The notes beneath the pieces are model-generated. The model did no database searches and was not told the DNA's origin. It saw only the letters and a list, made by a program, of their open reading frames with translations. From NCBI GenBank assembly GCA_035631715.1, contig DASQIF010000042.1, positions 1,582-65,581 on the forward strand: a DNA stretch of 64,000 nt. The letters are read 5' to 3'. The translations under genes and the position numbers were made by a program. The first letter of the stretch is position 1. Each line of letters opens with the position of its first letter. Below are positions 27,796 through 60,432 of the stretch, in pieces. The DNA is from Candidatus Acidiferrales bacterium. Lineage in GTDB: Bacteria > Chloroflexota > Limnocylindria > P2-11E.

Positions 27796-27808
27796 GCGTT
27801 CGCGCCGT

Positions 27809-29778: not shown

Positions 29779-32746
<2,968 letters not shown>

Positions 32747-32757
32747 GTGGCGGCTCG

Positions 32758-34970: not shown

Positions 34971-35879
34971 CTAGAGGAGCTCGACGAACATCGCCCACTG
35001 GTCCTCAAGGTCGTCGATGCTCTCGGCCGGAAATGCAAGGGAGGCACACTCGTCGACGCCGAGGGCTTCGAGCCGCGCGATCTTCTCGCGGATCACGTCG
35101 GGCGAGCCCACCAGATTCGACGCGGTCATGAGCGATTGATCGCGACCGGTCGTGTCGCTGGTGAGACGATGACGAACGAAGCGACTCGATTCGTAGCGCC
35201 GCACCGCGTCCTCATGCCGTGGCGCGATCGTCGCGCTGAGCTCGGGCGCGATGGCGAAAGCGCGCGCGTCGCGCCCGTGTGCCGCCAGCTCACGCCGGAG
35301 CAAGTCGATGCGTTCGGTGAGCACATCGAAGGGCTGCCAGCCCGGCATCCAGCCGTCGCCCTCACGCGCGGCACGCGTCACCGCCGCGGTGCCGTGCCCG
35401 CCGACATAGATAGGAATACGCGCGTCGCCGAGGTGCGCGCGAAGCGCGGCGAGCGTCTCGGCGAAGAGCTCGGCGCGCGGCCGGCCGACGGCCTCGGGAC
35501 GGGTCTCGGCCAGCTCCTCGGGATACGCGCCCAGACCGAGGCCGAGCACGAAACGTCCGCCGGAGAGCGCCGCGAGGGTGGCGGCCTGGCGCGCGAGCAG
35601 GACCGGCTCGCGCAGCAGCAGCGCAAGCACGGCCGTCCCGAGGCGCACTCGCTGCGTGACGGACGCCACGGACGCGAGCGTGACCATCGCCTCGTAGAAG
35701 TGCGGCGACTCGCCGCGCAGAAACGCCGGCGTCACGAGGTGGTCGTTCGCCCAGAGGCCGTCGAACCCGAGGCGTTCAGCGGTGCGCGCGAGACGATGGA
35801 GCGACGACGGGTCGCGCACCATGCCGACCGGATAGCCCAGACCCTCATACGCGGTCGGCAGCGCGACGCTGAAGCGCAT
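34971..35879 (-). CDS. LLM-class F420-dependent oxidoreductase (Rv2161c-like subfamily)
   Basis: It has luciferase-like motifs (FDGLWANDH, RVRLGTAVLAL, GRFVLGLGLG). It is the last gene of the long minus-strand cluster. Confidence 0.8.
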   Translation of the reverse strand: MRFSVALPTAYEGLGYPVGMVRDPSSLHRLARTAERLGFDGLWANDHLVTPAFLRGESPHFYEAMVTLASVASVTQRVRLGTAVLALLLREPVLLARQAATLAALSGGRFVLGLGLGAYPEELAETRPEAVGRPRAELFAETLAALRAHLGDARIPIYVGGHGTAAVTRAAREGDGWMPGWQPFDVLTERIDLLRRELAAHGRDARAFAIAPELSATIAPRHEDAVRRYESSRFVRHRLTSDTTGRDQSLMTASNLVGSPDVIREKIARLEALGVDECASLAFPAESIDDLEDQWAMFVELL

Positions 35880-35883
35880 CGCG

Positions 35884-37338
35884 CTACGCGCCGCGAGTGA
35901 AACCGATGGGCAGCGCGCGCACCTTCGCCTCGAGACGCTCGAGCGTCGGCGCGAGCTCGGCGAAGCGCGCAGCGCGCGCCGGGAGCGTGGACCAGATGCC
36001 GTCGACCAGGCGCTGCGCGTCGGCGAGCAAAGCCGGAGCGTCGACGCTCTTCACCTTTCCGCCCGCGACCACGACGGCGCCGTCGATGATGACCGTGTCC
36101 ACCGAGCGGCCGACCTCGGCGTAGACGAGCTGATTCGCGATCTGCTCCTTCGGGCCGAGACGCAGCTCACCGGCGCGCAGCAGCGCCAGATCGGCGCGGT
36201 AGCCGGGCGCGATTCGGCCGATCTTCTGGCGCATCGCGCGCGCGCCGCCGTCCCACATCATGCGCAGCGCGTCCATCGCGGTCGGCCACTCCGACTGCGG
36301 GCGGTGCGGCCGCTGCAGGATCGCGGCTGACTTCAGCGTCTCGAACATGTTCTGGCTGTCGCTGCTCGAGGCGCCGTCCGTGCCCAGACCGACATGCACG
36401 CCGGTGCGCAGCATGTCGGGGATCGGCGCCACGCCGGCACCGAGCTTCTGGTTGCTCATCGGGTTGTGCACGACGTTGCCGCCGAGCTCGCCCAGACGCC
36501 GGACCTCGGCATCGTCGAGCCAGATCGCGTGCGCGAACGAGGTCCACTCGGCGATGCCGCCGATGCGCTCGAGGAACGCGACGGTCGATCCGCCGTAGCG
36601 CTCCTTTGCGAGCGGCACCTGCGACTTCGCGGACAGCAGATGCGTGTGCAAGGCCACACCGCGCCGCTTGGCGAGGTCGACGGACGCCTCGAACAGCTCG
36701 GTCGAGCAGCGTGGCAGCGACGACGGGCCGAGCAACGGGCGAAGCCGCGGGTGGCGTGTCGCCCATCGCTCGAGGAACGGCTCGAGCCGCGAGAGCAGCT
36801 CGGGGACCTTCGCCGTGCGTGGCCGTTCCGTGGCCTCGCCGATGAGCGACATCGGGAGCGAATCGAAGAACTCGAGATCGCTGTACTGCGCGGCGACGTT
36901 CGCGCGCATCCCCGAGTCGGCGTACGCGCCCATGATCTCGTCCATGCCCTCGTCGAACCAGCGCTGATCGCAGCGCGGGCAGTCGAGGACGCTGGTCGTC
37001 CCGGTGGCGATCATCTCGAGCGCGCCGACCATCGTCGAGAGATAGAGGTCCTTCGGCTTGAGGGTCGCTCCCGCGCCGCCGTACGAGGCGACGACCATCC
37101 ACGTGTCGAGCGGCAGCGCGTCGCACAGGCCCTTCTCGATGGACTGGTTCGAGTGCGTGTGCGCGTTGATGAGTCCGGGCATGACGATCGTCCCGGCGGC
37201 GTCGACGACCGCCGCGCCGCGCGCATCCAGATCCCGGCCGACCGCCACGATCGCGCCGTCGTCGACGAGCACGTCTGCAATCTCGAACGGCCGCTCCAGA
37301 TCGAAGACGTGACCGCCGCGGATCAGCGTCTTAGCCAT
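35884..37338 (-). CDS. Amidohydrolase (TRZ/ATZ, guanine/aminohydrolase, MtaD-like family)
   Basis: It has the motifs PGLINAHTHS, HTHL and GLGTDGASSSD. It is 4 nt from the next gene. Confidence 0.85.
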   Translation of the reverse strand: MAKTLIRGGHVFDLERPFEIADVLVDDGAIVAVGRDLDARGAAVVDAAGTIVMPGLINAHTHSNQSIEKGLCDALPLDTWMVVASYGGAGATLKPKDLYLSTMVGALEMIATGTTSVLDCPRCDQRWFDEGMDEIMGAYADSGMRANVAAQYSDLEFFDSLPMSLIGEATERPRTAKVPELLSRLEPFLERWATRHPRLRPLLGPSSLPRCSTELFEASVDLAKRRGVALHTHLLSAKSQVPLAKERYGGSTVAFLERIGGIAEWTSFAHAIWLDDAEVRRLGELGGNVVHNPMSNQKLGAGVAPIPDMLRTGVHVGLGTDGASSSDSQNMFETLKSAAILQRPHRPQSEWPTAMDALRMMWDGGARAMRQKIGRIAPGYRADLALLRAGELRLGPKEQIANQLVYAEVGRSVDTVIIDGAVVVAGGKVKSVDAPALLADAQRLVDGIWSTLPARAARFAELAPTLERLEAKVRALPIGFTRGA

Positions 37339-37912: not shown

Positions 37913-38424
37913 CAGCCCGCCGCCGGGAAGAGCGCGGAGTGTCGCAGCAGCAGCACCATGGGCTTCTCGCGCGCTTCATCGACCGCGCTCGCGATCGTGT
38001 CGAGCTCGTCGGCGCGCGTGAGGACGCGATACGGGATGCGCAGACCCGCGAGCACGCCCTCGGTCACCAGACCCTTGTACTTCTGGTAGTGGAAGCGGTC
38101 GTCCTCGAGCCCGCGGTAGACGGCGAGGACGAGGAACCCGAGCTGATGGTTGTGCGCGTAGCCAGCCAGCGCGTTCGCCGACAGGAGCACGCCGGCGTTC
38201 TGGCACACCACCGCGGCGCGCTTGCCGCCCAGTGCGCAACCCGCGGCGATGCCGACGGCGTCGTCCTCTCGGCCGACGCGGATGTGGCGGATCTTCGGCT
38301 CGGCATCGATGCGCGCGAGCACCGGCGCGAGCCACGAGTCGGGCAGGCTCGCCGCGACCTCGACCTTCGCGGCGACGAGCGCCTTCACGACGCGCTCGGC
38401 GCTCGCGGCACCGGGCTCGCTCAC
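37912..38424 (-). CDS. comD: Sulfopyruvate decarboxylase alpha-subunit-like TPP enzyme (ComD-like, N-terminal pyrimidine-binding half)
   Basis: The GTG at 38424 is preceded by a GGGAGG SD. It matches the TPP_enzyme_N pattern (GREDDAVGIAAGCALGGKRAAVVCQNAG). Confidence 0.75.
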   Translation of the reverse strand: MSEPGAASAERVVKALVAAKVEVAASLPDSWLAPVLARIDAEPKIRHIRVGREDDAVGIAAGCALGGKRAAVVCQNAGVLLSANALAGYAHNHQLGFLVLAVYRGLEDDRFHYQKYKGLVTEGVLAGLRIPYRVLTRADELDTIASAVDEAREKPMVLLLRHSALFPAAG

Positions 38425-39656
38425 GCTGCCTCCCGGAAGAAACGGACCGCGGTGTCGGCGTACGCGCGCGCCGCCTGCACCAGATCGTCGAGCGACACGC
38501 TCTCGATGCGCGGGTCGTCGGCGCCCCGCGTGACCTGCGGACCCATGCGCGCGGTCGGGATGCCGCGCGCGAGCAGCAGCGCGCCGTCGGTGGCGCCGCT
38601 CCACGCGGTCACCGGCGCGAGGTCGCCGAACGCGTCGCGCCATGCGGCCGTCGCGTGGCGCACGATCGCGCTTTGGTCGTCAGTCGCGCCGCCGGGCCCG
38701 TACGCGTACACGTCGACGCTGACACGCGGTGAGCGGGGCAACGCGGCCGCGACCGGCGCGAGCGCGGAGGCGAGCTCGCGCGCGACCTGCTGCGCGTCGG
38801 CGTCGGGCAGCAGCACGGCGTAGAGGAACAGCTCGAGCGAGCCGGGGAGCAGATCGGGCTTCTCGGGGCTGCCCGAGCGGATCGCGCCGATCGCGATCTC
38901 GGGCGCGAGCTGCCCGCGTGCGGGATGCGCGGCGAGATACCGCGCGCGCCAGTCCTCGATCGCGCCGATGACCGTGTCGGCGTGGCGCGCGAGCCCGCCG
39001 TCGGGAGCGACGACACGGCGCGCGAGCGCGGCGTCCCACCGGTCGTGCAGGGCGACGCGCAGGTACGCCGCGGCCGGCTCCTCGCGCAGCACGCCTCGTG
39101 GCCCGGCCTTCACGTTCAGCACCGCGTCGGGCTTCCAACCGGCATCGAGCGCGTGCGCGACGCCGCGGCCGAACGCGCTCATCGCCGTGTCCGGATCGGC
39201 GCGGTGCGTACCCGTCGCCGCGAGCAGGAGCGTGAGGCGATGCGGGATCTTCGCGCCGCGCAGCGCGCGCGCGGCCGCGATGAACGCGGCGATGCCGGCG
39301 GCGGTCGGCGCCTTCGCCACACCGACGCCGAAGCCGCGCACGGCGCGGCCGCGTACCTCGAACGGCGCGGGCGGCGCGTCGGTGCCGGTGATGCCGCGGT
39401 CACGACGCGCGTCGCCGGTGAGGCTCGTGTCGAGGTGTCCGTAGATGGCGAGCTCGCGTGGCGCCTGGCCGGATGACGCGCGCGCGAACACGTTGGCGCT
39501 GCGCTCGTCGATCGCGTCGACGTCCCACGCCGCGTCGGGTGCGGCGACGCGGCCCCAGCGCACCACGGCCTCCGCGAGCTCGCGCTCCGCGCCGTGCGGG
39601 CTCGCGACGCTCAGCAGGACCTTGAGCGGCTCGAGGACATCGGCGTCGCCGATCAC
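38421..39656 (-). CDS. M20/M25/M40-family metallopeptidase/deacylase (ArgE/DapE-like)
   Basis: It has the motif IYGHLDT. The chosen GTG start at 39656 overlaps the upstream stop as GTGA, and its own stop overlaps the comD start. Confidence 0.65.
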   Translation of the reverse strand: MIGDADVLEPLKVLLSVASPHGAERELAEAVVRWGRVAAPDAAWDVDAIDERSANVFARASSGQAPRELAIYGHLDTSLTGDARRDRGITGTDAPPAPFEVRGRAVRGFGVGVAKAPTAAGIAAFIAAARALRGAKIPHRLTLLLAATGTHRADPDTAMSAFGRGVAHALDAGWKPDAVLNVKAGPRGVLREEPAAAYLRVALHDRWDAALARRVVAPDGGLARHADTVIGAIEDWRARYLAAHPARGQLAPEIAIGAIRSGSPEKPDLLPGSLELFLYAVLLPDADAQQVARELASALAPVAAALPRSPRVSVDVYAYGPGGATDDQSAIVRHATAAWRDAFGDLAPVTAWSGATDGALLLARGIPTARMGPQVTRGADDPRIESVSLDDLVQAARAYADTAVRFFREAA

Positions 39657-42600
39657 GCCGGGCCGACGATCCGTCCGGACACGCGCGTCGCGAGACCGAG
39701 CGCCGCGTCGAGCTTCCACGCGTTGCGCTCGAGTGGATGACCCTCGCGATCGAGCTCGGCGTCGAGGGCGCGGTGTAGGTCATCGGCCGTGGCCCGGCGT
39801 CCCTCGAGGGCGCGCTCGGTCGCGCGCGCGCGCCACGGTGTCGGCGCGATCGCGCCGAGCACGACGCGCACGTCACGCCACGTCCCGACCGGCTCGACGC
39901 GCGCCGACACCGCGGCCGACGCCAGCGCGAAGTCGCCCTGCCAGAGGCCGAGCTTCTCGAACGCGCCGCGGCGCGCGAGCGCGTCCGGTCCGATGCGGAT
40001 GCGCGTGACGAGCTCGCCGTCCTTCAGCACCGTCTCGCCAGGGCCGGTGTAGAAGTCCGACAGCGCGACGGTCCGCTCGCCGGCCGCGCCGCGGATCACC
40101 GCGTCGGCATCGAGGGCCACGAGCGCGGTCGCGAGGTCGGAGGGCGTGACGGCCTGGCAGCGATGCGCGCCGAGCGCGGCGTGATAGAAGCGGTGATCGC
40201 CCTGCACCGCGTAGCACGGACACGTCACGCCGCCCCGCTTGTAGCAATCGAAGCCGTTGCGGAAGAACCAGCAGCGCTTCCCCTGCACGAGGTTCCCGCC
40301 GACCGTCGCGACGGCGCGGATCTGGGTGGAGGCGATCGAGCGCGCCGCCTCCGCCAGCACGGGAACATGGGTCGCGAGCTCGCGCGCTACCTGGGCGAGC
40401 GTCACCCCCGCGCCGATCTCGAGCGCGCCGTCGTCGGCGGTGCGGATGCGCCCGAGCTCCTCGATCTCGGCGAGCGCGACGAGGCGCGTCGGGTTCGTGA
40501 GGCGCTGCCGCCGCTGCAGGAGGAGGTCGGTCCCGCCCGCGATCGCGGCGGCGTCCGGCCCGAGCGCGCGCACCGCATCGTCCAGCGTTGCCGGCGTGGC
40601 GATCTCGGCGATCGCGCGCCGCGGCCGGCGCTTCGCGAAGCGCGTGCCGATGTGGTCGAGGACCCAGTGCAGGCCGAGGGGATATGAGCGACGGATGAAT
40701 TCGATCTCCCATCGCTTCGGCCGCGCCCAGATGCGGAACGAGCGCCTTCGTCGATGCTCCTTCGCGGCAAGCGCCGCGAGGACCTTGTCCGGCGTGAACG
40801 GGAGGTCACGCAGGCGGATGCCGACGGCGTCGTAGATCGCGTTCGCGATCGCCGGCGCGGCCGGGATCACGGCGAGCTCGCCGATGCTCTTCGCGCCGTA
40901 CGGCCCGTTCGGGTCGGGATCCTCGACGAGGATCGGACGCACGCGCGGCACGTCGGCGGCACGCGGAAGCGCGTAATTGATGTAGGTCGGGTTCACCGGC
41001 CGGCCGTTCTCGTAGATGAGCTCCTCGCCGAGCACCGCGCCGAGGGCCATGACCACGCCACCGATGATCTGGCCCTCGACCATCATCGGGTTGATGGCCT
41101 TGCCGATGTCGTGGGCCGCGACGTAATCGAGGATCCGGATGCGCCCGGTCGCGCGGTCGACCTCGACCTCGGCGGCGTGCGCGGCGAAGGTGTACGCCGC
41201 GGAGAAGTTCGGCGACTTGCTCGACCCGGGCGGCTCCATGATCGTGTCGGTGTAGGCGTCCTCGTGCGTGAGCACGCCGCCCGCGGGCACGCGCTCCCCC
41301 GCCTTGAGACGCTCGGCCATGCCGCGCGCGGCCTTGCGCACCGCGTGACCGGTCATATAGGTGCCGCGCGATGACCACGCGCCCTGATCGATCGGGGTGC
41401 GCTCGCTGTCGATGGAGAGGACCTCGACGCGCTCGTACGCGAGGCCGAGCTCCTCGGCCGCGATCTGCGCGAGGATGCCGCGCTGTCCGGTGCCGGCATC
41501 GGCGCCGCCGAAGCGCACCCGCGCGCGGCCGTCCTCGTACAGATCGATCGCGGCCATGCTCGTGTTCGATCCGGGGATGGCGTACGAGCCGCTGCCGTGC
41601 ATGGCCGCTGCGACCCCGACGCCGCGCCCGGCGCGCTTGTTCCTGCGCTTCTCGGTCCAGCCGATCGCGTCGCGGACCGAGCGCAGGCAGTCGTCGAGCC
41701 GCGCCGAGGAGAGCTTCGCGCCGCAGAGGGCGACGGTGTTCGGCTGGTTCGCGTTCTGGATGCGCAGCTCGAGCGGGTCGCGGCCGAGCTGCTCGGCCAG
41801 CTCGTCGACCGCGCTCTCGAGCGCGAACGACGCCTGCGGGCTGCCATAGCCGCGGAACTGGCCCCCGGGCACGAGGGCCGTGTCGATGAGGCGTGCGTCC
41901 CAGACGACGCCGTCGGGCATGTAGATCGTGCCGAAGGTCTTGAGGCCGACGTGCATCACCGAAGGGCCGAAGTGGTTGTACGCGCCGTTGTCGACGTCGA
42001 TGCGCGAGTCGAAGAGCGTGATGCGGCCGTCGCGGTCGGCGCGAGCCTCGAGGTGGACGCGGAACGCGTGGCGCGGCTTCGTGTACGCGAACTCCTCCTC
42101 GCGGGAGAGCGCGATCTTCACCGTGCGACCGCTCTTGCGCGCGAGCGCGGCGGCGAGCGCCTCATGCTCGGAGACCTTGGACTTCGATCCGAAGCCGCCG
42201 CCCACCGCGACCTCGCGGCAGATGACCTGCTCGCGCTTGAGGCCGAAGACTTTGGCGAGCTCGCTCACCACGAAGTGCGGCGCCTGCGTCGACGTCCAGA
42301 GCTCGAAGCGCTCGGCCTCCGTGTCCCAGCGCGCGATGCAGATGTTCTGCTCCATGACCGCGTGTCCGACGCGCGGATACCAGTACGTGCCGCGCGAGAT
42401 CACCGAGCCGTTGCGCCGTCCGAGCTCGGCGTCGCCCCACATGCCGGCGCTCTTCAGCGACACGTTCCCTTCGCCGGTCTTGCGCTGGTGCAGACGGAGC
42501 GCGCCAGGGGCGAGCGCCTCGTCGATGGTGAGCGGCGCGCGATGCGGTCGGTACTTGACGACGATCGCGTCGAGCGCGTCGGCGGCCTGCTCCTCGGTGT

Positions 42601-44273: not shown

Positions 44274-44277
44274 GGGG

Positions 44278-45153: not shown

Positions 45154-45181
45154 CGCGACACCTCCCAGGTCCTCTTCGCCA

Positions 45182-46986: not shown

Positions 46987-47048
46987 GCTCTTCGCGTTTC
47001 TCCCCTCGTCTCGCGATACGATACGACCTCTCGCATCGTGCGCGCGCG

Positions 47049-49677: not shown

Positions 49678-49679
49678 GT

Positions 49680-50570
49680 TCAGTTCAGGCCGAGGACGCG
49701 CGAGGGATTGTCGCGGACCATCTTTCGCAGATCGCGTTCGCTCACCCCGAGGTCGTTCAGCTCGCCGAGCAGCTTCTTGAACGACTCGACCGGGAGCGGG
49801 TTGTTCACCTGACCGAGATCGCTCCCGATGCTCGTGCGGTCCGCGCCGACGAGGTCGATCCAGCCCTTCAGCTTCGCCGCATCCCAGTGATAGAACTCCG
49901 ACGCCTCGTCGTACATGCAGCACTCGTGCTCGATGAGCGCGCCGGTGTCCGCGAACTTCACGACCTGCTCGCGCGTCGCCTCGATGACGTACTCGGGGTG
50001 GTTCACCACCATGCGCTTCACGCCGGTGTCGCGCGCCGCCTCGAGCAGGATCTGGATGCGGTCCGGCGCCTGGTGTCCCGCGGCCACGACCGCGTCGGCG
50101 TCGGCGATCATCTTGAGGATCACCGGGACCTCCGGCCGGAGCGATCCCTGCTCGTCGAGGATGTCGACGATGTCTGGCTTGCGCAGCGGGACGCTCGGCT
50201 TCGGGAACTTCAGATCGGGATGCGCGGCCTGGTGCTCCTGATGGCGGCGCGCGGAGATCGTCGGGAACCACACGATCTTTGCGCCCATCTTGAGCGCGAG
50301 GTCGACCGCCGAGGGATTCAGGCCGCCGACCATCGAGTTGAGCGCGATCGATCCGAACACCTTCGTCTTGATGCCGTCGAAGTACGGCGCCATCGCGCGC
50401 ACGTCCATCACCGTGGGGTGGTGGTGCGACTTCACGACGATCGCGCGCATCCCCTCCTTGTCCGCCATGCGCGCCGCCTCGACGTGGTCCATGCGGCGCG
50501 GGAACGGCGAGGGACCCGAATGACAGTGCAGGTCGACCGCGCCCTCGAGGATGCGATCGATCGTGCTCAT
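49680..50570 (-). CDS. Amidohydro_2 (PF04909-like) TIM-barrel metal-dependent hydrolase/decarboxylase-family protein
   Basis: It has the N-terminal motif VDLHCH and a C-terminal PSRVLGLN typical of amidohydrolase-2. An ATGA overlap joins it to the upstream gene. Confidence 0.7.
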   Translation of the reverse strand: MSTIDRILEGAVDLHCHSGPSPFPRRMDHVEAARMADKEGMRAIVVKSHHHPTVMDVRAMAPYFDGIKTKVFGSIALNSMVGGLNPSAVDLALKMGAKIVWFPTISARRHQEHQAAHPDLKFPKPSVPLRKPDIVDILDEQGSLRPEVPVILKMIADADAVVAAGHQAPDRIQILLEAARDTGVKRMVVNHPEYVIEATREQVVKFADTGALIEHECCMYDEASEFYHWDAAKLKGWIDLVGADRTSIGSDLGQVNNPLPVESFKKLLGELNDLGVSERDLRKMVRDNPSRVLGLN

Positions 50571-51241
50571 GCAGGCACGGCGGCACCGACGCCGAGCGCG
50601 CGCGCGACATCGGCGATGGATGTCACGAGACCGTGGAAGCGGTCGGTGCTCGCGAGGACGGCGTCGTGCGCGGCCTGGTCGGTATCGGACACGACCTCGG
50701 CCGGGACGAGCACGTCGTAATCGCGCATGTACGCGTCGCGGATGGTTGAGTCGATGCAGAACGAGGTCGTGGTCCCTGCGATGACCAGGACCTGGATGCC
50801 TTTCGCGCGCAGCTCCGTGTTCAGCGGGGTCTCGAAGAACGCGCTCGCGCGGTGCTTGATGATGACGTCGTCCTCGGGCCGCATCACGGCCTTGATCTCG
50901 TCGAGCAGCTCGGTGCCCCACGTGCCGCGGTAGCAGAGCTCGAGCTTCACGCCGCGGCGGTCGAGGTGCGAGGGGATGCGGCGGCGCTTACGCGCCTGAT
51001 CGTCCGGGTAATGGACCTGACGTGTATAGGTGACACGCGCGCCGGCCGCGCGTGCGATTCGGATCATCTCCACCACGGCGGGGATCGACGCTCGCGGCAT
51101 GGCGATGGCGTCGACGCCGAAGGCCTTCGCGCGCGCACCCTCCGGATGGCAAAAGTCGTTCTGCATGTCGACCACCAGGAGCATGACCTCCTTAGGGTCG
51201 AGCTTGGGCAATTCGAGCTTGCGCACCTTGTCCTCAGGCAT
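50567..51241 (-). CDS. Isochorismatase/cysteine-hydrolase-family protein (N-carbamoylsarcosine amidase / maleamate amidohydrolase-like)
   Basis: It has the family motif MLLVVDMQNDFC and a catalytic Cys (TTSFCIDST). Confidence 0.8.
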   Translation of the reverse strand: MPEDKVRKLELPKLDPKEVMLLVVDMQNDFCHPEGARAKAFGVDAIAMPRASIPAVVEMIRIARAAGARVTYTRQVHYPDDQARKRRRIPSHLDRRGVKLELCYRGTWGTELLDEIKAVMRPEDDVIIKHRASAFFETPLNTELRAKGIQVLVIAGTTTSFCIDSTIRDAYMRDYDVLVPAEVVSDTDQAAHDAVLASTDRFHGLVTSIADVARALGVGAAVPA

Positions 51242-51310
51242 CCCCGGCTCCTTCCGCCCGTTCGCTGCACGCTATTTTGCGTCCTGCTCGCGTAGCGAGA
51301 TAGATGTCCA

Positions 51311-53347
51311 TCATGCGGTATGCGGCGCGACACCGTGCGCGCGCGCGATCGCGTCCGCGGTGCGGTAGGCGAGCGCCCAGATCGTTCCGGTGGGGTTGAC
51401 CCCGGCCGACGTCACGAACGTTCCGCTGCCAGCGAGGTAGAGGTTCGGCACGTCGTGCGCCCGGCCGTCCGGGTCGGTCACGCTCTTCGCGGGATCGGTG
51501 CCCATGCGGACGGTCCCCATGTGGTGTCCGGCGTACATCCCGGCCGGCACGGCGGAGCGCTGCGTGAGCACCTCGCGCGCACCCGCTTCGCGAACGACCG
51601 CTGCGACGCGCTCGGCCATGAACGCTTCCATCTCGAGCGTGTTGCGGTGATAGCGGTAGTGGATGCGCAGCCCGGGTCCGCCGTCAGCGAGGCGCAGCGT
51701 GGGATCGAGCTCCACCCGGTTCTCCTCCATCGGGAGGTCCTCGCACAGGGCATACGCGCCGAGGTGGCGGGCATAGGCGCGCGCCAGGAAGTCACGGAAC
51801 TCCGCGCCCCACGGCGGCACCCCGCTCGGCAACGGCGCGGTGAGCCCGGCCGCGTTCGCGAACGCGAGCGGACCGCCGGCGAACACCAGCGGGATCCCGC
51901 CGAGGATCGCGGCGCCGCGCACGAACGAGGCGCCGTGGCGCTCGCGCGGGCGATCCTCGTCGAGGTCGTCGAAGGCGGCGGCGGTCTGCGGGCCGCGGTC
52001 GGCGTAGAGCAACTCCTCGAACGTGCCCCAGGCCATCACGTTGGTGTGGAACATGAGGTTGCGGCCCACCAGGCCGGACGAGTTGGCGAGCCCGCGCGGA
52101 TGCGCGCGCGACGTCGACAGGAGCAGCATGCGCGCCTGGTACGCCGCACCGTTCGCGAGGACGACCGTGCGTGCGGTGACGTCGCGGCGGCCGCGCGCGT
52201 CGCGATAGCGGACGCCGGTCGCCAGGCCGCTGCGCGGATCGGTAAGCACGCGCTCGACCCGCGCGCCGGCGCGGATGTCGATGCGACCGCTCCGTGCAGC
52301 GCGTGCGAGCACGCTGTCGCGGGTGTTCCCCTTCGCGAGGCGGAAGCACTCGTAGTGCGAGCAGTGACCGCACAGATCACAGGCGCGCCGGTCGCCGCGA
52401 TCCGCCGTCAGCACCGCGGCCGGTGTGGCGTACGGCGCGTATCCGAGGCGGCGCGCGGCGTCGGCAAATCGGGACGCCGCGCGCGTGAACGGCACGGCCG
52501 GAAGCGGGAACGGCGCGCTGCGGCGTCCCTCGAACGGATTCGCACCGGCGACGCCGGCGACGCCGATCGCGCGGTCCGCACGCGCGTAGTACGGCTCGAG
52601 GTCCTCATAGCCGATCGGCCAATCGGCGACGCTCGTGCCGGACACGTGACCCGACGTCGACCGCACGCGGAAGTCCGACGGGTGGAAGCGGTACGTGATC
52701 GTCGTCCAGTGCAGCGGGCCGCCGACGCCGATGTTGCGCGCGAGGTACGAGCCGCGCATGACCAGCCCGTCGTTGACCACGAGGTTCTCGGGCTCGTTCC
52801 AGAAGAGCGCGCGCCGCACCTGGAACTCGCGCTCGTCGGTGCTCGCGCGACCGGCGGCCGGTCCAGCCTCGACGGCGATGACGCGCAGCCCGGCCTCGGC
52901 GAGCTCGGCCGCGATGACGCCGCCAGCCGCGCCGAGACCGACGACGATCACGTCGGCGTCGTCGCCGCCGCGACGCGTCTTGATCTTGGGCGGCACCCAC
53001 GTATGCAGCGCACCGGCGGTGGCCGCGACCGGCCGCGCCTCGGCCGCCTCGCGCGTCGTGAAGCCGCGCGGCTGCGGATCACCGACCGCGCCGAGCAGCC
53101 GCCAGCCCCACATCCCGCGGTTGCCGCCGTAGCGCGGATGCGCGAACGCGGCCTCGAGCGCGACGAGACGGAGCGCGAAGAACGCCGACGGTGATTCCTG
53201 TCGAAGCGCGTCGAGCGAAATGGTGCGAAGGATGCCGACCGTGCGACGCAGCGCGGCGCGCTCTGCGGGCGTCGCGTCCGTGAGCCAGCGCGCGGCGTAC
53301 GACGCCGCGCCCGCATCGGCGACACCGGGGACGATCTGATCGAGCAC
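51311..53347 (-). CDS. GMC-family FAD oxidoreductase with an N-terminal gluconate-2-dehydrogenase subunit-3-like domain (fusion)
   Basis: The N-terminal ~90 aa end in HPRYGGNRGMWGW (gluconate 2-DH subunit-3-like). An FAD GxGxxG follows (IVVGLGAAGGVIAAELAEAG), with GMC C-terminal motifs (GTVRMG, TFVTSAGVNPT). It starts with GTG. Confidence 0.75.
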   Translation of the reverse strand: MLDQIVPGVADAGAASYAARWLTDATPAERAALRRTVGILRTISLDALRQESPSAFFALRLVALEAAFAHPRYGGNRGMWGWRLLGAVGDPQPRGFTTREAAEARPVAATAGALHTWVPPKIKTRRGGDDADVIVVGLGAAGGVIAAELAEAGLRVIAVEAGPAAGRASTDEREFQVRRALFWNEPENLVVNDGLVMRGSYLARNIGVGGPLHWTTITYRFHPSDFRVRSTSGHVSGTSVADWPIGYEDLEPYYARADRAIGVAGVAGANPFEGRRSAPFPLPAVPFTRAASRFADAARRLGYAPYATPAAVLTADRGDRRACDLCGHCSHYECFRLAKGNTRDSVLARAARSGRIDIRAGARVERVLTDPRSGLATGVRYRDARGRRDVTARTVVLANGAAYQARMLLLSTSRAHPRGLANSSGLVGRNLMFHTNVMAWGTFEELLYADRGPQTAAAFDDLDEDRPRERHGASFVRGAAILGGIPLVFAGGPLAFANAAGLTAPLPSGVPPWGAEFRDFLARAYARHLGAYALCEDLPMEENRVELDPTLRLADGGPGLRIHYRYHRNTLEMEAFMAERVAAVVREAGAREVLTQRSAVPAGMYAGHHMGTVRMGTDPAKSVTDPDGRAHDVPNLYLAGSGTFVTSAGVNPTGTIWALAYRTADAIARAHGVAPHTA

Positions 53348-53388
53348 CGCGACGAGACGGCGGACGAAGGGGTCCGCCGGGCGCGTGC

Positions 53389-54813
53389 TCAGCCGCGGTC
53401 CAGCAACAGCGACATGCCGTCCACCATGTTCGTCATCTTGCCGAGGAACAGGCTGCCCTTCGCGATAAACAGCGCGTTGCGGAGCGAGCCATCGCGGAGC
53501 TTCGGCAGCGCGTGCGCGAGGTATGGGAGCGCGGCGGGGATGTGCCCCTGCGTCGGGACGAAACCCGGCATGCCGTGCACGCGCTCGAAACCGTCGACCT
53601 CTTCGCGCTTCATCTCGCCGCGCTGCACGCCGAGCGCGGCGATGATGCGGTAGTTCGTGCGCGGGACATTGCCGCTCCCCGCGGGCACGGTGATCTCGGG
53701 GTTGTGCAGCTCGACCGCGTACTTGTCGACGTCGGGGATGCGCAGGCCGAGATGACCGAGAGGCTCAGACACGAGCGCCTCGTAGATGGCGCCAGCGGAA
53801 CCGCCCGACGCGACGGTGTGCTTTCCCACCGCGTCGAGGCGCATGCGGACGCCGCTGCCGTCCGCGGGGCCGACGAGGATCGCCACGGACGCGAGGCAGT
53901 CCTCGAGCAGCGGCATGTCCTTCTGCATGTGGCCCAGCATCTTCATGCCGAGCTTCGCGAGCGATCCACCGCCGACGACGATCACGTTCTTGTACACGCC
54001 GCCCTGCACCAGCGCGCCCGCGAGCACGAGCGCGTGCACCGGCGCGCAGCAGAACGCCTTCACGTCCGAGCCGGTCGCCTGCGTGCAGCCGGCCATCTCG
54101 GCCATGGCCTTCGAGATGCTCCCGCCGCCGCGCTGGTAGCGGTCGCCGACCGCCTCCTCGCCGCAGCCGAGCAGGTACTCGACCTCGCCCGGCTCCATCT
54201 TCATCTGCGCGAGCAGCTCCTTCAGCGCGAGCGCGCCGGAGGCCTTGCACGCGAGGTTCTCGATGAGGATGTCCGCGGTCTGGCTCGAGTCTCCGGGATA
54301 GCCGTTCGCGATGCGGCCGACCTCGGATCCGTCCGCGGCGTTCAGTGAGATCGATCCGTCACTCGAGGCCGGCGGCTTCGCCGCCTTCACCGCGCGCTCG
54401 AGCTCGGCGTCGGCGAACAGGCCGGTGGCGCGGAGCAGATCGCGCGAGCGTTCGAGGCGCGACTTGTCGATGTCGAGGATGCCGAAGTCGTCGGCCATCT
54501 GGAGCAGACCCCAGAAGTGGTCCTCACCCACGATGCGACCCGCGGGTCCGGTCGCGCGCGCCCCCTCGTCACCGTGGCGCCACCACGGCTCGGGCACGCT
54601 CCAGAGCCACTCCGGGCCGTGATTGCCGATGAAGACCTGGTTCGGACCGTACGCGACCGCGTCGTCGAACGAGCGCAGGTGCGGTCGCATCTTGTCGAAG
54701 AGGCCGGGCTCGCGCGCGAGCTCGCGCGTCGGCTTCGAGCCATAGCGAAGAAGACCCGGGGTGTGGGAGATCACGCATGCGATGCCGCGGATGGTGGGGA
54801 ACGTCTCAGTCAT
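53389..54813 (-). CDS. grdC: Glycine/sarcosine/betaine reductase complex component C beta-subunit-like protein (GrdC-like)
   Basis: The N-terminus (GIACVISHTPGLLRYG...LRSFDDAVAYGPNQVFIG) matches my recollection of GrdC. Its start overlaps the grdA stop as ATGA. The assignment is from memory. Confidence 0.6.
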   Translation of the reverse strand: MTETFPTIRGIACVISHTPGLLRYGSKPTRELAREPGLFDKMRPHLRSFDDAVAYGPNQVFIGNHGPEWLWSVPEPWWRHGDEGARATGPAGRIVGEDHFWGLLQMADDFGILDIDKSRLERSRDLLRATGLFADAELERAVKAAKPPASSDGSISLNAADGSEVGRIANGYPGDSSQTADILIENLACKASGALALKELLAQMKMEPGEVEYLLGCGEEAVGDRYQRGGGSISKAMAEMAGCTQATGSDVKAFCCAPVHALVLAGALVQGGVYKNVIVVGGGSLAKLGMKMLGHMQKDMPLLEDCLASVAILVGPADGSGVRMRLDAVGKHTVASGGSAGAIYEALVSEPLGHLGLRIPDVDKYAVELHNPEITVPAGSGNVPRTNYRIIAALGVQRGEMKREEVDGFERVHGMPGFVPTQGHIPAALPYLAHALPKLRDGSLRNALFIAKGSLFLGKMTNMVDGMSLLLDRG

Positions 54814-55277
54814 GACCCGAGGGTACGCTCGCGCACTTTGCGGATGCTCTGCCAGATGTCGTCGGTCTGCATGGCGACCTCAGAGAGACCGATCTGGTCC
54901 TGGTAAATGGACGCGTCGGCCTTCTCCCGAACCTCTGGTTCGGTCACGTGATAGACGGGGAGTCCCAACGAGACTCCGGCCAGCGGACCTGTGTATGTCG
55001 GATCGCCTGCGGTGACCGTCTCAGCCATCATCTCGACGTACGCGGGCTCGGCCGCTCCGAGGATCACTACCAGCCCGTCCTTGCCCTGCGTGTCGTAGAT
55101 GCGCTTGATCTCGGTCTGCTCATCCAGGTCCGAGGCACCGGCGCTCGTTCAGACGAAGCACTGATTCAGCTCGAGCAGCACTTCGGCGCCGGCGCTCCGC
55201 GCCACCGCCGCGATCGCTGTCGCCTGCACTCCGTCACGCTCGCCGATCGCGATGACCTTCTTGCCTTGAAGATCCAA
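54810..55277 (-). CDS. grdA: Glycine/sarcosine/betaine reductase selenoprotein A (GrdA) with in-frame UGA-selenocysteine at 55149..55151
   Basis: A TTG start is preceded by a strong GGAGGGAGGTGA SD. Reading through the in-frame TGA gives MDLQGKKVIAIGERDG...NQCFV-U-TSAGASDLDEQ...AETVTAGDPTYTGPLAGV, which is collinear with the GrdA consensus including the CFVUT motif. The ORF table lists only the 85-aa C-terminal part. Confidence 0.8.
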
Positions 55278-55355
55278 TCGTTCACCTCCCTCCGACTTTC
55301 TTCTCATCGAGTATCGCATTGCGAGGTGCCGTCACGCTAGACGAGACGGCGCATG

Positions 55356-56660
55356 TCAGGACTCGACCGACCCCGAACGGCCGAAGCCGATGGGATTCGC
55401 GGCGCCGGCGTAGAAGGTGCGCCGCTCGAGGGTGATGGCGGTGTCGATCGGGTACGGCACGCCCCCGATCTCCGGACGCACGCGGATGGCCTGATCCCCA
55501 GCCACGCGATCCATCTTCGGGAGCGCCAGCGGCTCGTCGAGGTTCCCCGTGCTCACGATGGCCACCGCCTCAGGCACCGCGAACGGCAACGGGTAGTCCG
55601 AGCCGTCCGGCCCGGCGTGCTCCCACGTGATGAGCACGGTCTTGATGCCACGTCGCTCGCATTCCTGTATCGCCAACATCACCTCGGTGACGTTATTCCC
55701 GGCACCGCCCAGTGTGAACACGACGCCGTTCGCGCCGAGCAGCGTCGCGCTCTCCGCGATGCGCAGGCCGACGCGCTGCTTGTCCTCGTAGAGATAGAAG
55801 TGACCGCGGTGCAGCACGATGCCCGCGAAGTCCCAGCGCTTCCCGTGGGCGGCGACGAGGTGCTCGACGACGGCGTTGTTCTGATGCATCCAGGTGTGGA
55901 GCTTCACGCCGTGGCCGCCCAGGCCGCCCGCGGTGAGCGCCCCGTCGGCGAGCTCGTTCGGATGCACGAGCGTGGGCTGGAGCTCGTCGAGCACGCGTCC
56001 GTACAGACGGCTGCGCATGAACACGCCCTGCGACTGCACCTGATACGCGTAGACGATGCGGGGCAGCGCGGCCGCGGGGCGCGAGAGGTCGCGGTGCTCG
56101 ACCGACGACGGCGCGGCGTCGCGCGCGGTGAGCGCGAGCGCGCGCGCGACCTTCTCGCCGGCGAGGAGCAGGCCGCGCTCGTACCCCTCGTGGTCGACGC
56201 CGTCCTTGAACGTGAACCGGAGCACGACGAGATGCAGGTTGGCGTACGGCTGCAGGTCCGCCCCCGGCCCGGCCATGTCGAGCACGCTGTCGTGCGGAAC
56301 GAAGAGACCTTTCGCGCCGAGCCAGGGAACAGGTCCCGACGTGACGACGGCGACGCCGCGGAGGCGATCGGTGCGGCCGGAGCCGACGGGCTCGACCGCC
56401 GAAAGCAGACCGGGGAACACACCGCCGGTGCCGCCGGACTTCGCGCGTGGCTCGATGACGTCGGTGATCTGCGGGATGCGCACGCTCTCGTGCGGGCGCA
56501 CGAGCATGACCTCGACGCCGGCGAACGCGGGATCCGAGGACGCGAGCGTCGCGATCTCGTCGCGCGCGATGGTCAGCTTGCCGCCGGCGAAGGCGGTGCG
56601 GTCGCCGAACGCGACGTCCGCGACGTCGAAGGTGCCTAGCTCGAGCGTCTTCGCGCTCAT
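55356..56660 (-). CDS. grdE: Glycine/sarcosine/betaine reductase component B alpha/beta proprotein-like (GrdE-family)
   Basis: Its motifs resemble GrdE/PrdA (VEVMLVRPHESVRIPQITDVIEPR, YAYQVQSQGV, WMHQNNAV, IKTVLITWEHAGPDGS). Its start overlaps the grdB stop as ATGA. The assignment is from memory. Confidence 0.6.
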   Translation of the reverse strand: MSAKTLELGTFDVADVAFGDRTAFAGGKLTIARDEIATLASSDPAFAGVEVMLVRPHESVRIPQITDVIEPRAKSGGTGGVFPGLLSAVEPVGSGRTDRLRGVAVVTSGPVPWLGAKGLFVPHDSVLDMAGPGADLQPYANLHLVVLRFTFKDGVDHEGYERGLLLAGEKVARALALTARDAAPSSVEHRDLSRPAAALPRIVYAYQVQSQGVFMRSRLYGRVLDELQPTLVHPNELADGALTAGGLGGHGVKLHTWMHQNNAVVEHLVAAHGKRWDFAGIVLHRGHFYLYEDKQRVGLRIAESATLLGANGVVFTLGGAGNNVTEVMLAIQECERRGIKTVLITWEHAGPDGSDYPLPFAVPEAVAIVSTGNLDEPLALPKMDRVAGDQAIRVRPEIGGVPYPIDTAITLERRTFYAGAANPIGFGRSGSVES

Positions 56661-57970
56661 GACGCACCGCGGAAGAGGGTGGCCTTGTCGATCTTCTCGC
56701 CGAGCGCGCCGAGGGCCGCGCGCACCAGACCGATACGCAGCGCGTGGTCGCCGGCCGGCTCGAGCGTCGGATCGCCGCAGGGGTGCGGGATCTTCACGCC
56801 TCGGATGACGCGGTTCGCGCCGAGGTCCGCCGCGACCGGGCCGAGCGCGGTGATCATCGCGGTGGGCAGCCCGGCACGCTCGAGTTCCGCACTGATCGCT
56901 GCACCGCAGCGATTGCAGGTCCCTCAGGTCGCGGTGAGGATGACCCCGTTCACGCCGCGTTCCTTCAGCTGCGCGGCGATCTCGCGGCCCATGCGGCGCG
57001 CCTCCACCACCGCGGTGCCGACACCGGTCGTGACGATGTAGCGCTCGTCCAGATCGCCGAACGCGTGCGCGTGCTGCAGCTCGCGCACCGCGTCGAGGGG
57101 CATGACGTAGTTCGGATTGCTGTTCGCCGCGCTCGCGTCGTAGCCAGAGTGGATCGACTCATACTTCCCCGGCTCGAGCTGTTCGAGGCCGGCGATCGGG
57201 TACGCGCGCCACTCCGTGGAGTTCGACTGCTTCAGTCCGTCGGGATTGCCCTTGGGGACGATGCCGCCGGTCGTGATGAGCGCGATCCGGGCCGACGCGA
57301 CGTCGGCCAGAGGCGCCGCCGGCGCGACGTGCTCGACCGCTGGGAGCGTGAGCTCGGTCGCGAACTTCTGCCCGGCCATCCGCGCCACGAGCATGTCGAG
57401 CGCGCGCTCCGCGGCCGGACGGTCGAGGATGGCGGTTCGGTGCACGCCCTTGCCGTAATAGCCCTCCACCGCGGCCGCGCCGATGACCTCATGGCGGCCG
57501 AGCCGGATCGCGAACCGCGCGAGCCGTCCAAGGGTCTCGTTCATGCCGAGCGCCGTCGGCGTGGTGGGAAGGACGTAGGTCTTCGCGCGATACAGGTCGA
57601 CCCCCGGGTTCTCCGCGTTCATCGCGGTCACAGCCGGGATCCCGAGCGCCGCGGCGCGCGCGCAGGCCTCGCCACACGCGAGCCCGTAGCGGCCGGCGTT
57701 GAACGCCGGTCCCGCGACGAGGACGTCGGCGCGCTGCTCGCGCAGCGCGGCCGTCACCGCGGCGCCGAACGCCTCGAGGTCGGTGGCCGCGCGGTTGTCG
57801 CCGCAGATGAACGTCGCGACCACCTGGCCGGCGTCGCCGAGCTCCTTCTGCAGACCGATGCCGGGGCCGATCGGACCGCCGCGTACGGTGAAGGGGTGAT
57901 CCCCGGCCTCCTCCGCGCCGATCCGGCCGAAGAACTGATTGACGTAGTGGACGACGCGCAGGCTCGCCAT
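56657..57970 (-). CDS. grdB: Glycine/sarcosine/betaine reductase selenoprotein B (GrdB-family) with in-frame UGA-selenocysteine at 56924..56926
   Basis: Two table ORFs (56924..57970 and 56657..56857) are in the same frame and separated only by TGA. Readthrough gives a 437-aa protein collinear with GrdB (VVHYVNQFFG, GPAFNAGRYG, IPAVTAMNAENPGVD, VILTAT-U-GTCNRCGA, ANRVIRGVKIPHPCGDP). An AGGAGA SD lies upstream of the ATG. Confidence 0.85.
56892..56918 (-). promoter_or_regulatory. SECIS-like stem-loop immediately 3' of the grdB UGA (8-bp perfect stem AUCGCUGC/GCAGCGAU, GGU apical loop, plus a 3-bp lower stem)
   Basis: It is seen directly in the sequence. The mRNA reads UGA GGGAC CUGca AUCGCUGC GGU GCAGCGAU CAG. 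An apical loop with GGU 15-25 nt after UGA is characteristic of bacterial SECIS elements bound by SelB. Confidence 0.55.
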
Positions 57971-58074
57971 CGGGGAAAGGCTCTCCTCTTCGCGCTCCGA
58001 GGTGCCGTCTCACGATACGGGATGCGACCCTTCGACGCTGGACCAAACGCGCGGCGTGAAGGACCATCGCGGCG

Positions 58075-59831: not shown

Positions 59832-59847
59832 CCGCGGCCGCCGCCCG

Positions 59848-60420: not shown

Positions 60421-60432
60421 GGCTTTCCGCCG

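Follow-up and report, generated by a model that had tools for sequence, protein, structure and literature searches.

The 64,000-nucleotide window analysed in this study (contig DASQIF010000042.1 of assembly GCA_035631715.1, positions 1,582 to 65,581; Limnocylindria, Chloroflexota) contains a block of about 23 kb, at positions 34971-57970, in which genes of a selenocysteine (Sec)-containing reductase of the glycine reductase (Grd) family stand together with genes for a molybdenum enzyme, Rieske and ring-cleaving oxygenases and several amidohydrolase-type enzymes. Genes were called from third-position GC (GC3) and frame plots and then from start-codon context, in DNA of about 70% G+C. Family assignments were based on Pfam and NCBIfam, and the NCBIfam equivalog cut-offs served as the test for a specific function.

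Gene content and layout of the block

The block holds 21 genes (Table 1), and every GC3-supported gene in it lies on the minus strand, as the original prediction had stated. In transcription order, the 20 junctions measure -4, 78, -4, 41, 69, -4, +2, -4, -4, 62, -4, 28, +4, -4, -4, -4, -4, -1, -8 and +4 nt. The pervasive stop/start overlaps that had been described were thus borne out at 12 junctions (1-8 nt), three others being gaps of 2-4 nt and five being gaps of 28-78 nt. The larger gaps precede grdA (78 nt), the GMC fusion (41 nt), the isochorismatase-family gene (69 nt), the Rieske alpha gene (62 nt) and the VOC gene (28 nt); four of these five positions had been given correctly, and the 28-nt gap had been placed before the Rieske beta gene. 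A co-directional DUF1801 gene (34533-34919) follows 51 nt past the block end, and beyond 34533 come unrelated genes, which encode a GNAT, an Imm5-like protein and MFS transporters.

The previous count of 24 genes was too high, since 21 were found (22 with the DUF1801 gene); two of the surplus genes would arise if grdA and grdB were each cut in two at the in-frame TGA. Similarly, one Amidohydro_1 gene was found where two amidohydrolases had been claimed. Only two of the luciferase-like monooxygenase (LLM)-class oxidoreductases, of which three had been claimed, lie inside the block, and two more lie upstream. The product that had been labelled amidohydro_2 belongs to Pfam DUF6282, of which some homologues also match the Amidohydro_2 family. 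Pfam and NCBIfam upheld the other family labels, namely Rieske alpha and beta, VOC extradiol dioxygenase, cupin, HpcH, CoxS, CoxL-CoxM fusion, M20, split ComDE-like thiamine pyrophosphate (TPP) enzyme, isochorismatase, IclR, GMC fusion, GrdA, GrdB, GrdC and GrdE-like. PF13618 was recorded on the orthologues of the GMC fusion in two related loci (L001 and L174).

Table 1. Genes and cis-elements of the block in transcription order, followed by the upstream flank
Feature	Position	Strand	Basis or remark
Conserved cis-element CGTATCGTGAGACGGCACCTCG upstream of grdB	57998..58019	-	divergent region shared with ABC permease genes
GrdB-family selenoprotein B, 437 aa	56657..57970	-	TIGR01918, 437.8 bits (cut-off 65)
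SECIS-like hairpin AUCGCUGC-GGU-GCAGCGAU	56895..56917	-	starts 11 nt past the grdB UGA
GrdE/GrdG-like substrate subunit (GrdE'), 434 aa	55356..56660	-	Pfam Gly_reductase, E = 5.7e-95
12-mer GACGGCACCTCG in the GrdE-grdA gap	55322..55333	-	also present within the grdB upstream element
GrdA, selenoprotein A	54810..55277	-	reduct_selen_A equivalog, 188 bits (cut-off 130)
GrdC, component C beta subunit	53389..54813	-	reduct_C_beta equivalog, 549 bits (cut-off 450)
GMC flavoprotein oxidoreductase fused to N-terminal gluconate-2-dehydrogenase-subunit-3-like region	51311..53347	-	Pfam GMC_oxred_N, GMC_oxred_C
Isochorismatase-family cysteine hydrolase, nearest RutB and biuret hydrolase	50567..51241	-	core member in L169, L173
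DUF6282 protein, Amidohydro_2-related	49680..50570	-	Pfam DUF6282, E = 2.5e-71; homologues co-match PF04909
HpcH/HpaI-family class II aldolase	48898..49677	-	always adjoins DUF6282, including in L169 and L173
IclR-family regulator	48047..48901	-	Pfam; 50%-identical orthologue by the Rieske module in Desertimonas
Bicupin-sized cupin, weak gentisate 1,2-dioxygenase similarity	47049..48050	-	Pfam
Conserved cis-element GTATCGTATCGCGAGAC upstream of Rieske alpha	47008..47024	-	candidate promoter or operator
Rieske ring-hydroxylating oxygenase alpha	45664..46986	-	PF00355, PF00848; best named relative Ca. Limnocylindria, 84% identity
Ring-hydroxylating oxygenase beta	45182..45667	-	PF00866
Two-domain VOC-type extradiol dioxygenase	44278..45153	-	Pfam/NCBIfam
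CoxS/XdhC-like 2x[2Fe-2S] small subunit	43782..44273	-	PF00111, PF01799
F420-dependent LLM-class oxidoreductase	42916..43785	-	passes TIGR03560, 245.7 bits (cut-off 231.4)
CoxL-CoxM fusion (CoxLM), 1088 aa, molybdenum cofactor and FAD subunits	39653..42919	-	PF01315, PF02738, PF20256, PF00941, PF03450
M20-family metallohydrolase, divergent	38421..39656	-	Pfam; orthologues after CoxLM in every relative
Split TPP-dependent decarboxylase, ComDE/phosphonopyruvate-decarboxylase-like, N-domain	37912-38424	-	Pfam/NCBIfam
Split TPP-dependent decarboxylase, C-domain	37331-37912	-	Pfam/NCBIfam
Amidohydro_1, TRZ/ATZ / SsnA / 8-oxoguanine-deaminase group	35884..37338	-	Pfam/NCBIfam
LLM-class oxidoreductase, probably F420-dependent, last block gene	34971..35879	-	Pfam/NCBIfam
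Two ABC permeases	58075-59831	+	divergent from grdB; syntenic with grdB
Flavin reductase	59848-60420	-	PF01613; window-specific, between ABC permeases and Mer-like LLM
Mer-like LLM	60433-61509	-	syntenic with grdB
SBP_bac_5 binding protein	61552-63144	-	syntenic with grdB
Second Mer-like LLM	63215-63931	-	syntenic with grdB; reading frame open to window end 64000

Conservation, modularity and shared cis-elements

The whole-block synteny search that the original prediction had called for showed that the gene order recurs in Limnocylindria soil contigs. The same order was found on at least 10 independent contigs from metagenomes and metagenome-assembled genomes (MAGs), with 65-92% protein identity (loci L001, L002, L004, L009-L018, L090-L112 and L174 of the numbered related loci), and among named relatives the nearest are soil MAGs of Candidatus Limnocylindria (Chloroflexota), with approximately 80-90% protein identity. 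This recurrence of gene order is more than chance and supports a conserved catabolic unit instead of a chance run of genes. Moreover, the block limits proposed earlier were too narrow, because the conserved synteny with grdB continues across 58075-63931; apart from the flavin reductase gene, which is apparently an insertion specific to this genome, this flank is kept next to grdB in L007 and L009-L018. The window showed no gene for an ABC ATPase to go with the transporter. The second Mer-like LLM gene has its first in-frame start at 63931, and its Pfam match begins at profile position 138; the true start of this gene, and hence the conserved system, may lie beyond position 64000.

The block is a mosaic of the following three parts: a core composed of the isochorismatase-like amidase, the DUF6282 protein, the HpcH aldolase, CoxS, the CoxL-CoxM fusion, the M20 protein, the split TPP decarboxylase and the TRZ/ATZ-type amidohydrolase; an aromatic module composed of the Rieske alpha and beta subunits, the VOC extradiol dioxygenase, the bicupin and IclR; and a Grd module that joins the Grd genes to the ABC transporter and the F420-type LLMs and extends to at least 63931. 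Two other genomes (L169/L170 and L173) harbor the core cluster without grd, Rieske, LLM or GMC genes, with DUF6282-HpcH beside the order Amidohydro_1-TPP_C-TPP_N-M20-like-CoxLM-CoxS-isochorismatase. The L169 and L173 core proteins share 39-61% identity with the window orthologues (approximately 61% for DUF6282 and 61% for the isochorismatase-family protein). Because the genes of both halves of the block are contiguous in L169 and L173, the halves constitute one ancestral unit into which the IclR-bicupin-Rieske-VOC segment was inserted here. The claim of a single pathway thus held in respect of this contiguity, and has to be modified in that the block is an evolutionary mosaic with, probably, several transcription units.

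The association of Grd with the molybdenum enzyme is independent of gene order, since Grd-Cox adjacency recurs in three different orders. On a JGI contig (3300047160), the order is GrdB-CoxM-CoxS-CoxL-GrdE'x2-isochorismatase-amidohydrolase-TPP-amidohydrolase-LLM. In L021 and L093, a second type of GrdB/GrdE pair (L021:2151-4759 and L093:7263-9883), with 42-49% identity to GrdB and GrdE' of the window, is wedged between orthologues of CoxLM (72-77% identity) and of the LLM upstream of CoxLM (58-64%), so that in some relatives this core may be associated with two Grd-like systems. Furthermore, CoxS-VOC coupling holds in all arrangements compared; in L093, CoxS is still coupled to VOC even though CoxLM lies 6 kb off, with an NMT1-type transporter and the type-2 grd pair in between. 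More distant CoxLM fusions adjoin an OxoO-type Rieske oxygenase (L109) or an NMT1-type importer, and a molybdenum enzyme beside either of these is the classical arrangement for N-heteroaromatic degradation.

Comparison of the larger intergenic gaps revealed a GTATCG..GAGAC element that sits 26-67 nt before the start codon in a fixed orientation. The pattern CGTATCG-N0-6-GAGACG has only two sites in the window, upstream of grdB and of Rieske alpha, with 0.08 matches expected, and the 12-mer between the GrdE' gene and grdA belongs to an inverted, related and conserved element that precedes grdA. All three elements are kept at orthologous positions in relatives, the Rieske alpha element being kept in L001-L004, L009, L010, L013, L016, L093, L098 and L112. 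Among the metagenome loci retrieved with CoxLM as the query, this element also stands before CoxS in L091, a locus with no Rieske genes ahead of CoxS, and before CoxLM in L021, in the divergent region by the type-2 grdB. Such a fixed orientation and spacing would suit a promoter, perhaps one that includes an operator, and IclR may act at this shared site. A hairpin (GCCGTC...GACGGC) in the gap before grdA was considered as an RNA structure and dropped, as it was not conserved in orthologues. Scans for sigma-70 promoters and intrinsic terminators returned hits at or below the shuffle expectation; these scans are uninformative for this high-GC Chloroflexota DNA, and operon limits were not settable in this way.

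These features suggest one regulon with several transcription units, and probably not one transcript. Most likely there are at least three units, that is, grdB-grdE', grdA-grdC onward, and Rieske alpha through the last LLM; the last of these (11 genes from 46986 to 34971, with gaps of at most 28 nt) is very likely one operon that combines aromatic and molybdenum-enzyme genes. Our preferred reading, held with a little better than even confidence, is that soil Limnocylindria have in this locus a conserved catabolic regulon, typical of the lineage, in which three modules were joined and which most likely serves to take up and degrade a compound that contains N, is probably N-heteroaromatic and may be bicyclic.

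It seems unlikely that the block is instead a catabolic island of independent pathways (aromatic-acid meta-cleavage, N-heterocycle or purine-like salvage, and an osmolyte or amino-acid reductase), packed head-to-tail in a compact high-GC genome and having no common substrate. Such an island would account for the occurrence of each module without the others, for the IclR gene in mid-block and for the five gaps of 28-78 nt near module borders, and the other catabolic genes of the window (DAO, amidohydrolase and PucR, 23.5-28.7 kb) show that genes of this kind are common in the genome. However, the core halves that the Rieske module splits here are contiguous elsewhere, which argues that this module sits inside one functional unit. 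Also counting against independent pathways are the translational coupling of CoxS to the VOC gene in all arrangements, the same cis-element heading grd, Rieske and Cox units, and the repeated Grd-Cox adjacency in different gene orders.

The Grd module and the core enzymes

The grdB gene contains an in-frame TGA at 56924-56926 within the motif TAT-U-GTCNRCG (U-x-x-C-x-x-C), and this TGA is kept in all relatives examined. A hairpin resembling a selenocysteine insertion sequence (SECIS) follows it and folds in each of the 53 distinct GrdB loci compared, which come from many phyla. Between clades, U-A pairs of the stem give way to C-G pairs by compensatory change: most phyla have AUCGUUGC/GCAACGAU, this clade has AUCGCUGC/GCAGCGAU, and some Dehalococcoidia have ACCGUUGC/GCGACGGU; the Rfam model SECIS_4 also gave a weak match exactly at this hairpin. 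Because of the conserved TGA and the covariation of the SECIS stem, Sec decoding is well supported. Likewise, grdA, which starts with TTG at 55277 behind a Shine-Dalgarno sequence, has a Sec TGA at 55149-55151 (motif CFV-U-T; Cys-x-x-Sec) that is kept in relatives. The CxxU motif of GrdA, the UxxCxxC motif of GrdB with the SECIS hairpin at the same position, and GrdC are shared with the Grd systems of Peptoclostridium acidaminophilum, C. sticklandii and C. difficile.

Unlike those systems, the window module has B and E subunits far below the substrate-specific equivalog cut-offs: the B subunit scored 394 bits as GrdB (cut-off 602), 446.5 as GrdF (800) and 419.9 as GrdH (775), and the GrdE-like subunit (GrdE') scored 249 as GrdG (780). 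The GrdE' clade is Chloroflexota-specific, with 54-100% identity within the clade and then a drop to at most 47%. Moreover, the window has no adjacent GrdD, GrdX or trxAB, and its module lies amid O2-dependent oxygenases, a molybdenum enzyme and F420-type LLMs in a soil lineage that is not a Stickland fermenter. The claim of a selenoprotein reductase module was therefore correct as to the Grd family and its Sec, and needs the qualification that this is not an ordinary glycine reductase, the GrdE-like subunit being without the pyruvoyl Cys.

In C. difficile GrdE, Cys242 becomes the pyruvoyl group (PMC9908766). The glycine and sarcosine enzymes require a GrdE/GrdG proprotein with this Cys in an Asn-Cys cleavage site. 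In an alignment with 140 family representatives, Cys242 of a canonical-type protein (P0287, SGN-C-VS) aligned with Leu247 of GrdE', whose only Cys is C334. Only seven of the 140 representatives have a Cys at the pyruvoyl position, which suggests that most of the diversity of the Grd E family is non-canonical and uncharacterised; at the pyruvoyl site, the type-2 Chloroflexota GrdE that adjoins CoxLM elsewhere reads GN-V. The betaine reductase GrdHI and the Cloacibacillus fluoroacetate reductase FarBE likewise use a GrdE-family partner (GrdI and FarE) without this Cys, because activation of their substrates does not go through a Schiff base (PMC10838667). A search of PDB sequences gave no match for GrdE'. 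GrdB-GrdE-GrdC-GrdA clusters are widespread, occurring in Rokubacteria/Methylomirabilota, Dehalococcoidia, Binatia and Deltaproteobacteria MAGs (L065:8452-13442 and many of the loci L022-L088).

These observations bear on the possibility of an ordinary glycine, sarcosine or betaine reductase, which would clear glycine or sarcosine arising from hetero-ring breakdown, as in purinolytic and creatinine-fermenting clostridia, or convert imported betaine to acetyl phosphate. GrdA and GrdC do pass their equivalog cut-offs, the best models of the B and E subunits are the sarcosine types GrdF and GrdG, and an ABC importer adjoins grdB. In addition, the isochorismatase family includes N-carbamoylsarcosine amidase (3eef, among the PDB matches), and the xanthine dehydrogenase (XDH)-family, amidohydrolase and M20 genes resemble purine-degradation sets. 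Nevertheless, the scores of both substrate-defining subunits (394-447 bits against 602-800 for GrdB), the sequence break that sets the GrdE' clade apart and the Leu in place of Cys242 in a protein with one Cys in all make this explanation quite improbable, and the M20 and cupin proteins do not match the models of allantoate or ureidoglycine hydrolase. Glycine and sarcosine are unlikely as substrates here because the GrdE-like subunit has no pyruvoyl-forming Cys; betaine reductase is the least improbable of the three options, since GrdI is also non-pyruvoyl.

The molybdenum enzyme has the architecture of the XDH and carbon monoxide dehydrogenase (CODH) family, with two [2Fe-2S] domains, molybdenum cofactor domains and a flavin adenine dinucleotide (FAD) domain. 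Its small subunit lies below every equivalog cut-off, and no characterised member (XDH, CODH, Qor, Ndh, 4-hydroxybenzoyl-CoA reductase or Pao) was assignable. The best PDB match of the molybdenum cofactor part, with partial coverage, was the alpha subunit of 4-hydroxybenzoyl-CoA reductase (1rm6_A; E = 5.8e-107, 362 bits), followed by quinoline oxidoreductase (E = 4e-71), and the FAD part aligned without gaps across the Cys-rich iron-sulfur insertion of 1rm6_B and 5y6q_B. This insertion binds a [4Fe-4S] cluster in the beta subunit of 4-hydroxybenzoyl-CoA reductase, in PaoB and in the Methylobacillus aldehyde oxidase. The window enzyme thus resembles HcrABC and the PaoABC type in its best molybdenum cofactor matches and in the common insertion (1rm6_B, 5y6q_B and 5g5g_B); it differs in its modest identity, in the fusion of the L and M subunits and in a cluster without CoA ligase. 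Going by these likenesses, CoxS/CoxLM could hydroxylate a heterocycle, oxidise an aldehyde or act reductively; of the predicted Mo-dependent hydroxylation, the enzyme family stood, and hydroxylation itself is just one possible direction. Small Fer4 ferredoxin genes are present in related Grd loci (L007 and the JGI contig). An exact look-up of the CoxLM fusion matched no contig.

The DUF6282 protein is a candidate hydratase, lactonase or decarboxylase. Its gene is coupled directly after LigAB in Gaiellales, and no match, hence no solved structure, was found for it in the PDB sequence search. Its constant pairing with a class II aldolase recalls the protocatechuate 4,5-cleavage pathway (the Amidohydro_2 proteins LigI and LigJ with the LigK aldolase), but DUF6282 is a different Pfam family and the aldolase is of the HpcH type, not of the LigK type.

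The pathways for quinoline (Qor, the OxoOR Rieske oxygenase and meta-cleavage), nicotinate (NicAB...NicX and NicF) and picolinate (PicA-G) share with the block a logic common to aerobic N-heteroaromatic degradation, namely a molybdenum enzyme, an oxygenase, ring cleavage, an Amidohydro_2-type decarboxylase or hydratase and an isochorismatase-family amidase. In contrast to these pathways, the block has no gene-for-gene match or equivalogs, its L and M subunits are fused, and its M part carries the [4Fe-4S]-type insertion; the split TPP decarboxylase, the M20 protein, the TRZ/ATZ hydrolase, the F420-type LLMs and Grd have no counterpart in them. As candidates, the nicotinate and picolinate pathways were rejected because, of the set formed by the Mo hydroxylase, the NicC/PicB monooxygenase, the NicX dioxygenase, the NicD deformylase, the NicF amidase and maleate isomerase, only the molybdenum enzyme and an isochorismatase-family protein are present, both below cut-off. 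In L169, a genome of 64% G+C, a NicX-family (2,5-dihydroxypyridine dioxygenase-like) gene (1591-2553; also in L170) lies with M20 and B12-dependent mutase genes about 8 kb from the grd-less core. This neighbour hints at pyridine-ring chemistry for the core.

The clostridial sets of XDH, amidohydrolases and glycine reductase, together with the E. coli ygeW-ygfK-ssnA-ygeY-xdhD genes, are likewise comparable in having an XDH-family enzyme, an SsnA-like amidohydrolase (3e-45), a YgeY-like M20 protein (a weak match) and a Grd selenoprotein. However, no match of the block to these purine and urate fermentation sets reaches cut-off, the block includes Rieske and extradiol oxygenases, its GrdE' is unable to form a pyruvoyl group, and it has no carbamate kinase, carbamoyltransferase or YgfK-like genes. 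A purine/allantoin pathway was rejected because the M20 and cupin proteins did not match the AllC or ureidoglycine hydrolase models, and so was the Rut pyrimidine pathway (RutB 96.8 bits, cut-off 378; RutA 64 bits, cut-off 498). The benzoate/anthranilate dioxygenase, creatinine to sarcosine, and s-triazine pathways were also rejected at equivalog level.

Proposed function and significance

Within the proposed regulon, the substrate would be imported by the SBP_bac_5 ABC system (peptide/opine type), in place of which variant loci have an NMT1-type system. The molybdenum enzyme might then oxidise or hydroxylate the compound next to N, and the TRZ/ATZ hydrolase, the RutB/biuret-hydrolase-like cysteine amidase and the M20 deacylase could open or deaminate the hetero-ring. 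The split ComDE-like TPP enzyme would decarboxylate a 3-substituted 2-oxo acid, whereas DUF6282 and HpcH, by analogy with LigI/J and their aldolase, may convert a ring-fission product to pyruvate and an aldehyde; the Rieske, VOC and bicupin enzymes would attack a carbocyclic or aromatic ring, either in this substrate or in a related one. The similarities of the enzymes indicate chemistry on N-heterocycles and ureido compounds. The N-containing aromatic or heterocyclic substrate suggested by the original prediction fits the Mo-hydroxylase-family enzyme, the TRZ/ATZ/8-oxoguanine-deaminase-like hydrolase and the RutB/biuret-hydrolase-like cysteine hydrolase, and its statement that this is not a described pathway stands: outside GrdA and GrdC there is no equivalog, no gene-for-gene match to a characterised pathway was found, and no paper on the cluster was found.

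The Grd system (GrdB, the non-pyruvoyl GrdE-like subunit, GrdA and GrdC) would cleave a compound of the type X-CH2-COOH to XH and an enzyme-bound acetyl group, and hence to acetyl phosphate, where X would not be an amine (primary or secondary) in need of activation as a Schiff base. We tentatively propose that soil Limnocylindria have here a new, non-pyruvoyl Grd branch whose substrate is neither glycine nor sarcosine nor betaine, the candidates being a heteroaryl-, ureido- or otherwise substituted acetate that is imported or made by the core; Se-dependent reductive cleavage of a C-N (or C-O) bond, with formation of acetyl phosphate, would then be wired into an O2-dependent regulon for aromatic and N-heterocyclic compounds. 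A speculative chain, which rests on three consistently co-located enzymes, would lead from X-CH2-CO-COOH to X-CH2-CHO through the TPP decarboxylase, to X-CH2-COOH through an aldehyde-oxidoreductase-like action of the molybdenum enzyme, and to XH and acetyl phosphate through Grd.

Several observations count against the proposed regulon and its coupling to Grd. The shared element could be a lineage-typical promoter and not a pathway-specific operator, given that about 64 kb of the genome was searched, and only GrdA and GrdC reach equivalog cut-offs, the other block enzymes being assigned at family level. No GrdD-like gene was found after grdC, in the Pfam-scanned genes of the window (the largest GC3-supported open reading frames) or among the genes called in related loci; GrdD may be encoded elsewhere in the genome. 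Genes for thioredoxin and thioredoxin reductase, which donate electrons to Grd complexes and mostly lie next to their genes, were lacking in the window and in the neighbouring DNA of relatives, and Sec machinery was lacking in the window, where Rfam searches at gathering thresholds and tRNA scans were empty, with neither tRNA-Sec nor a riboswitch. No Rieske reductase or ferredoxin gene occurs in the block, its flanks or the rest of the window, and the sole flavin reductase, which is of the PF01613 type, is absent from orthologous loci. Known Grd systems belong to anaerobic and microaerophilic organisms (PMC1794560), whereas Rieske and extradiol oxygenases require O2. Finally, the modules are separable. 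The Rieske module stands alone in Desertimonas flava, where a 62%-identical alpha subunit belongs to a cupin-RHDαβ-VOC-AKR-M20-FAA hydrolase-HpcH-IclR cluster without grd or cox genes. L007 has GrdA, GrdB and GrdE' with the same ABC transporter and Mer-like LLMs, other amidohydrolases and an isochorismatase, and no Cox within 10 kb.

Biosynthetic clusters, too, can contain F420-dependent LLMs, TPP enzymes and oxygenases of the tailoring type. A cluster that makes a modified N-heterocyclic secondary metabolite or cofactor is hardly credible here, given that Pfam scans of the block and flank revealed no scaffold-forming enzyme (non-ribosomal peptide synthetase, polyketide synthase, terpene, or ribosomally synthesised and post-translationally modified peptide), that the transporter genes encode an importer and not an exporter, that extradiol ring cleavage, an aldolase and several amidases occur together, and that IclR regulators are typical of catabolic operons.

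The enzyme families of the proposed regulon are all known, and their combination is apparently undescribed, as it was not found among NCBIfam equivalogs or in the searchable literature, where queries on Chloroflexi or Limnocylindria glycine reductase and selenocysteine, on DUF6282 and on kynurenate catabolism returned no description. The same appears to hold for the Chloroflexota-specific non-pyruvoyl Grd branch, for its repeated linkage to a molybdenum enzyme with the iron-sulfur insertion, and for a regulon shared with O2-dependent oxygenases.

Elsewhere in the window, a separate small nitrogen-catabolic set on the other strand (23530-28714) comprises a DAO-type FAD oxidoreductase, an Amidohydro_1 protein, an ArsA-like ATPase and a PucR-type regulator (27809-28714). 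At 31315-33273 (+), the Imm5-like immunity protein (32758-33273) follows a 469-aa open reading frame without Pfam match (31315-32724), and the two possibly form a toxin/immunity pair. A large HAMP-GGDEF-EAL signalling protein (1900-4938, +) with a response regulator nearby (5694-6146) is apparently unrelated to the cluster.

Limnocylindria (Chloroflexota of the CSP1-4/Ellin6529 type) are abundant in soils and uncultured, and little is known about the carbon and nitrogen sources they use; a conserved regulon of at least 21 genes provides a concrete, testable catabolic trait for them. The Grd selenoenzyme family would reach beyond Stickland fermenters and gain a new substrate class, and it is repeatedly linked here to a molybdenum enzyme bearing the iron-sulfur insertion of reductive or ferredoxin-coupled relatives. 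Moreover, a functional context is supplied for DUF6282 and for the widespread split ComDE-like decarboxylase. Should the compound degraded be an N-heterocycle from plants or microbes, the system would bear on soil nitrogen turnover and on selenium dependence in aerobic soils.

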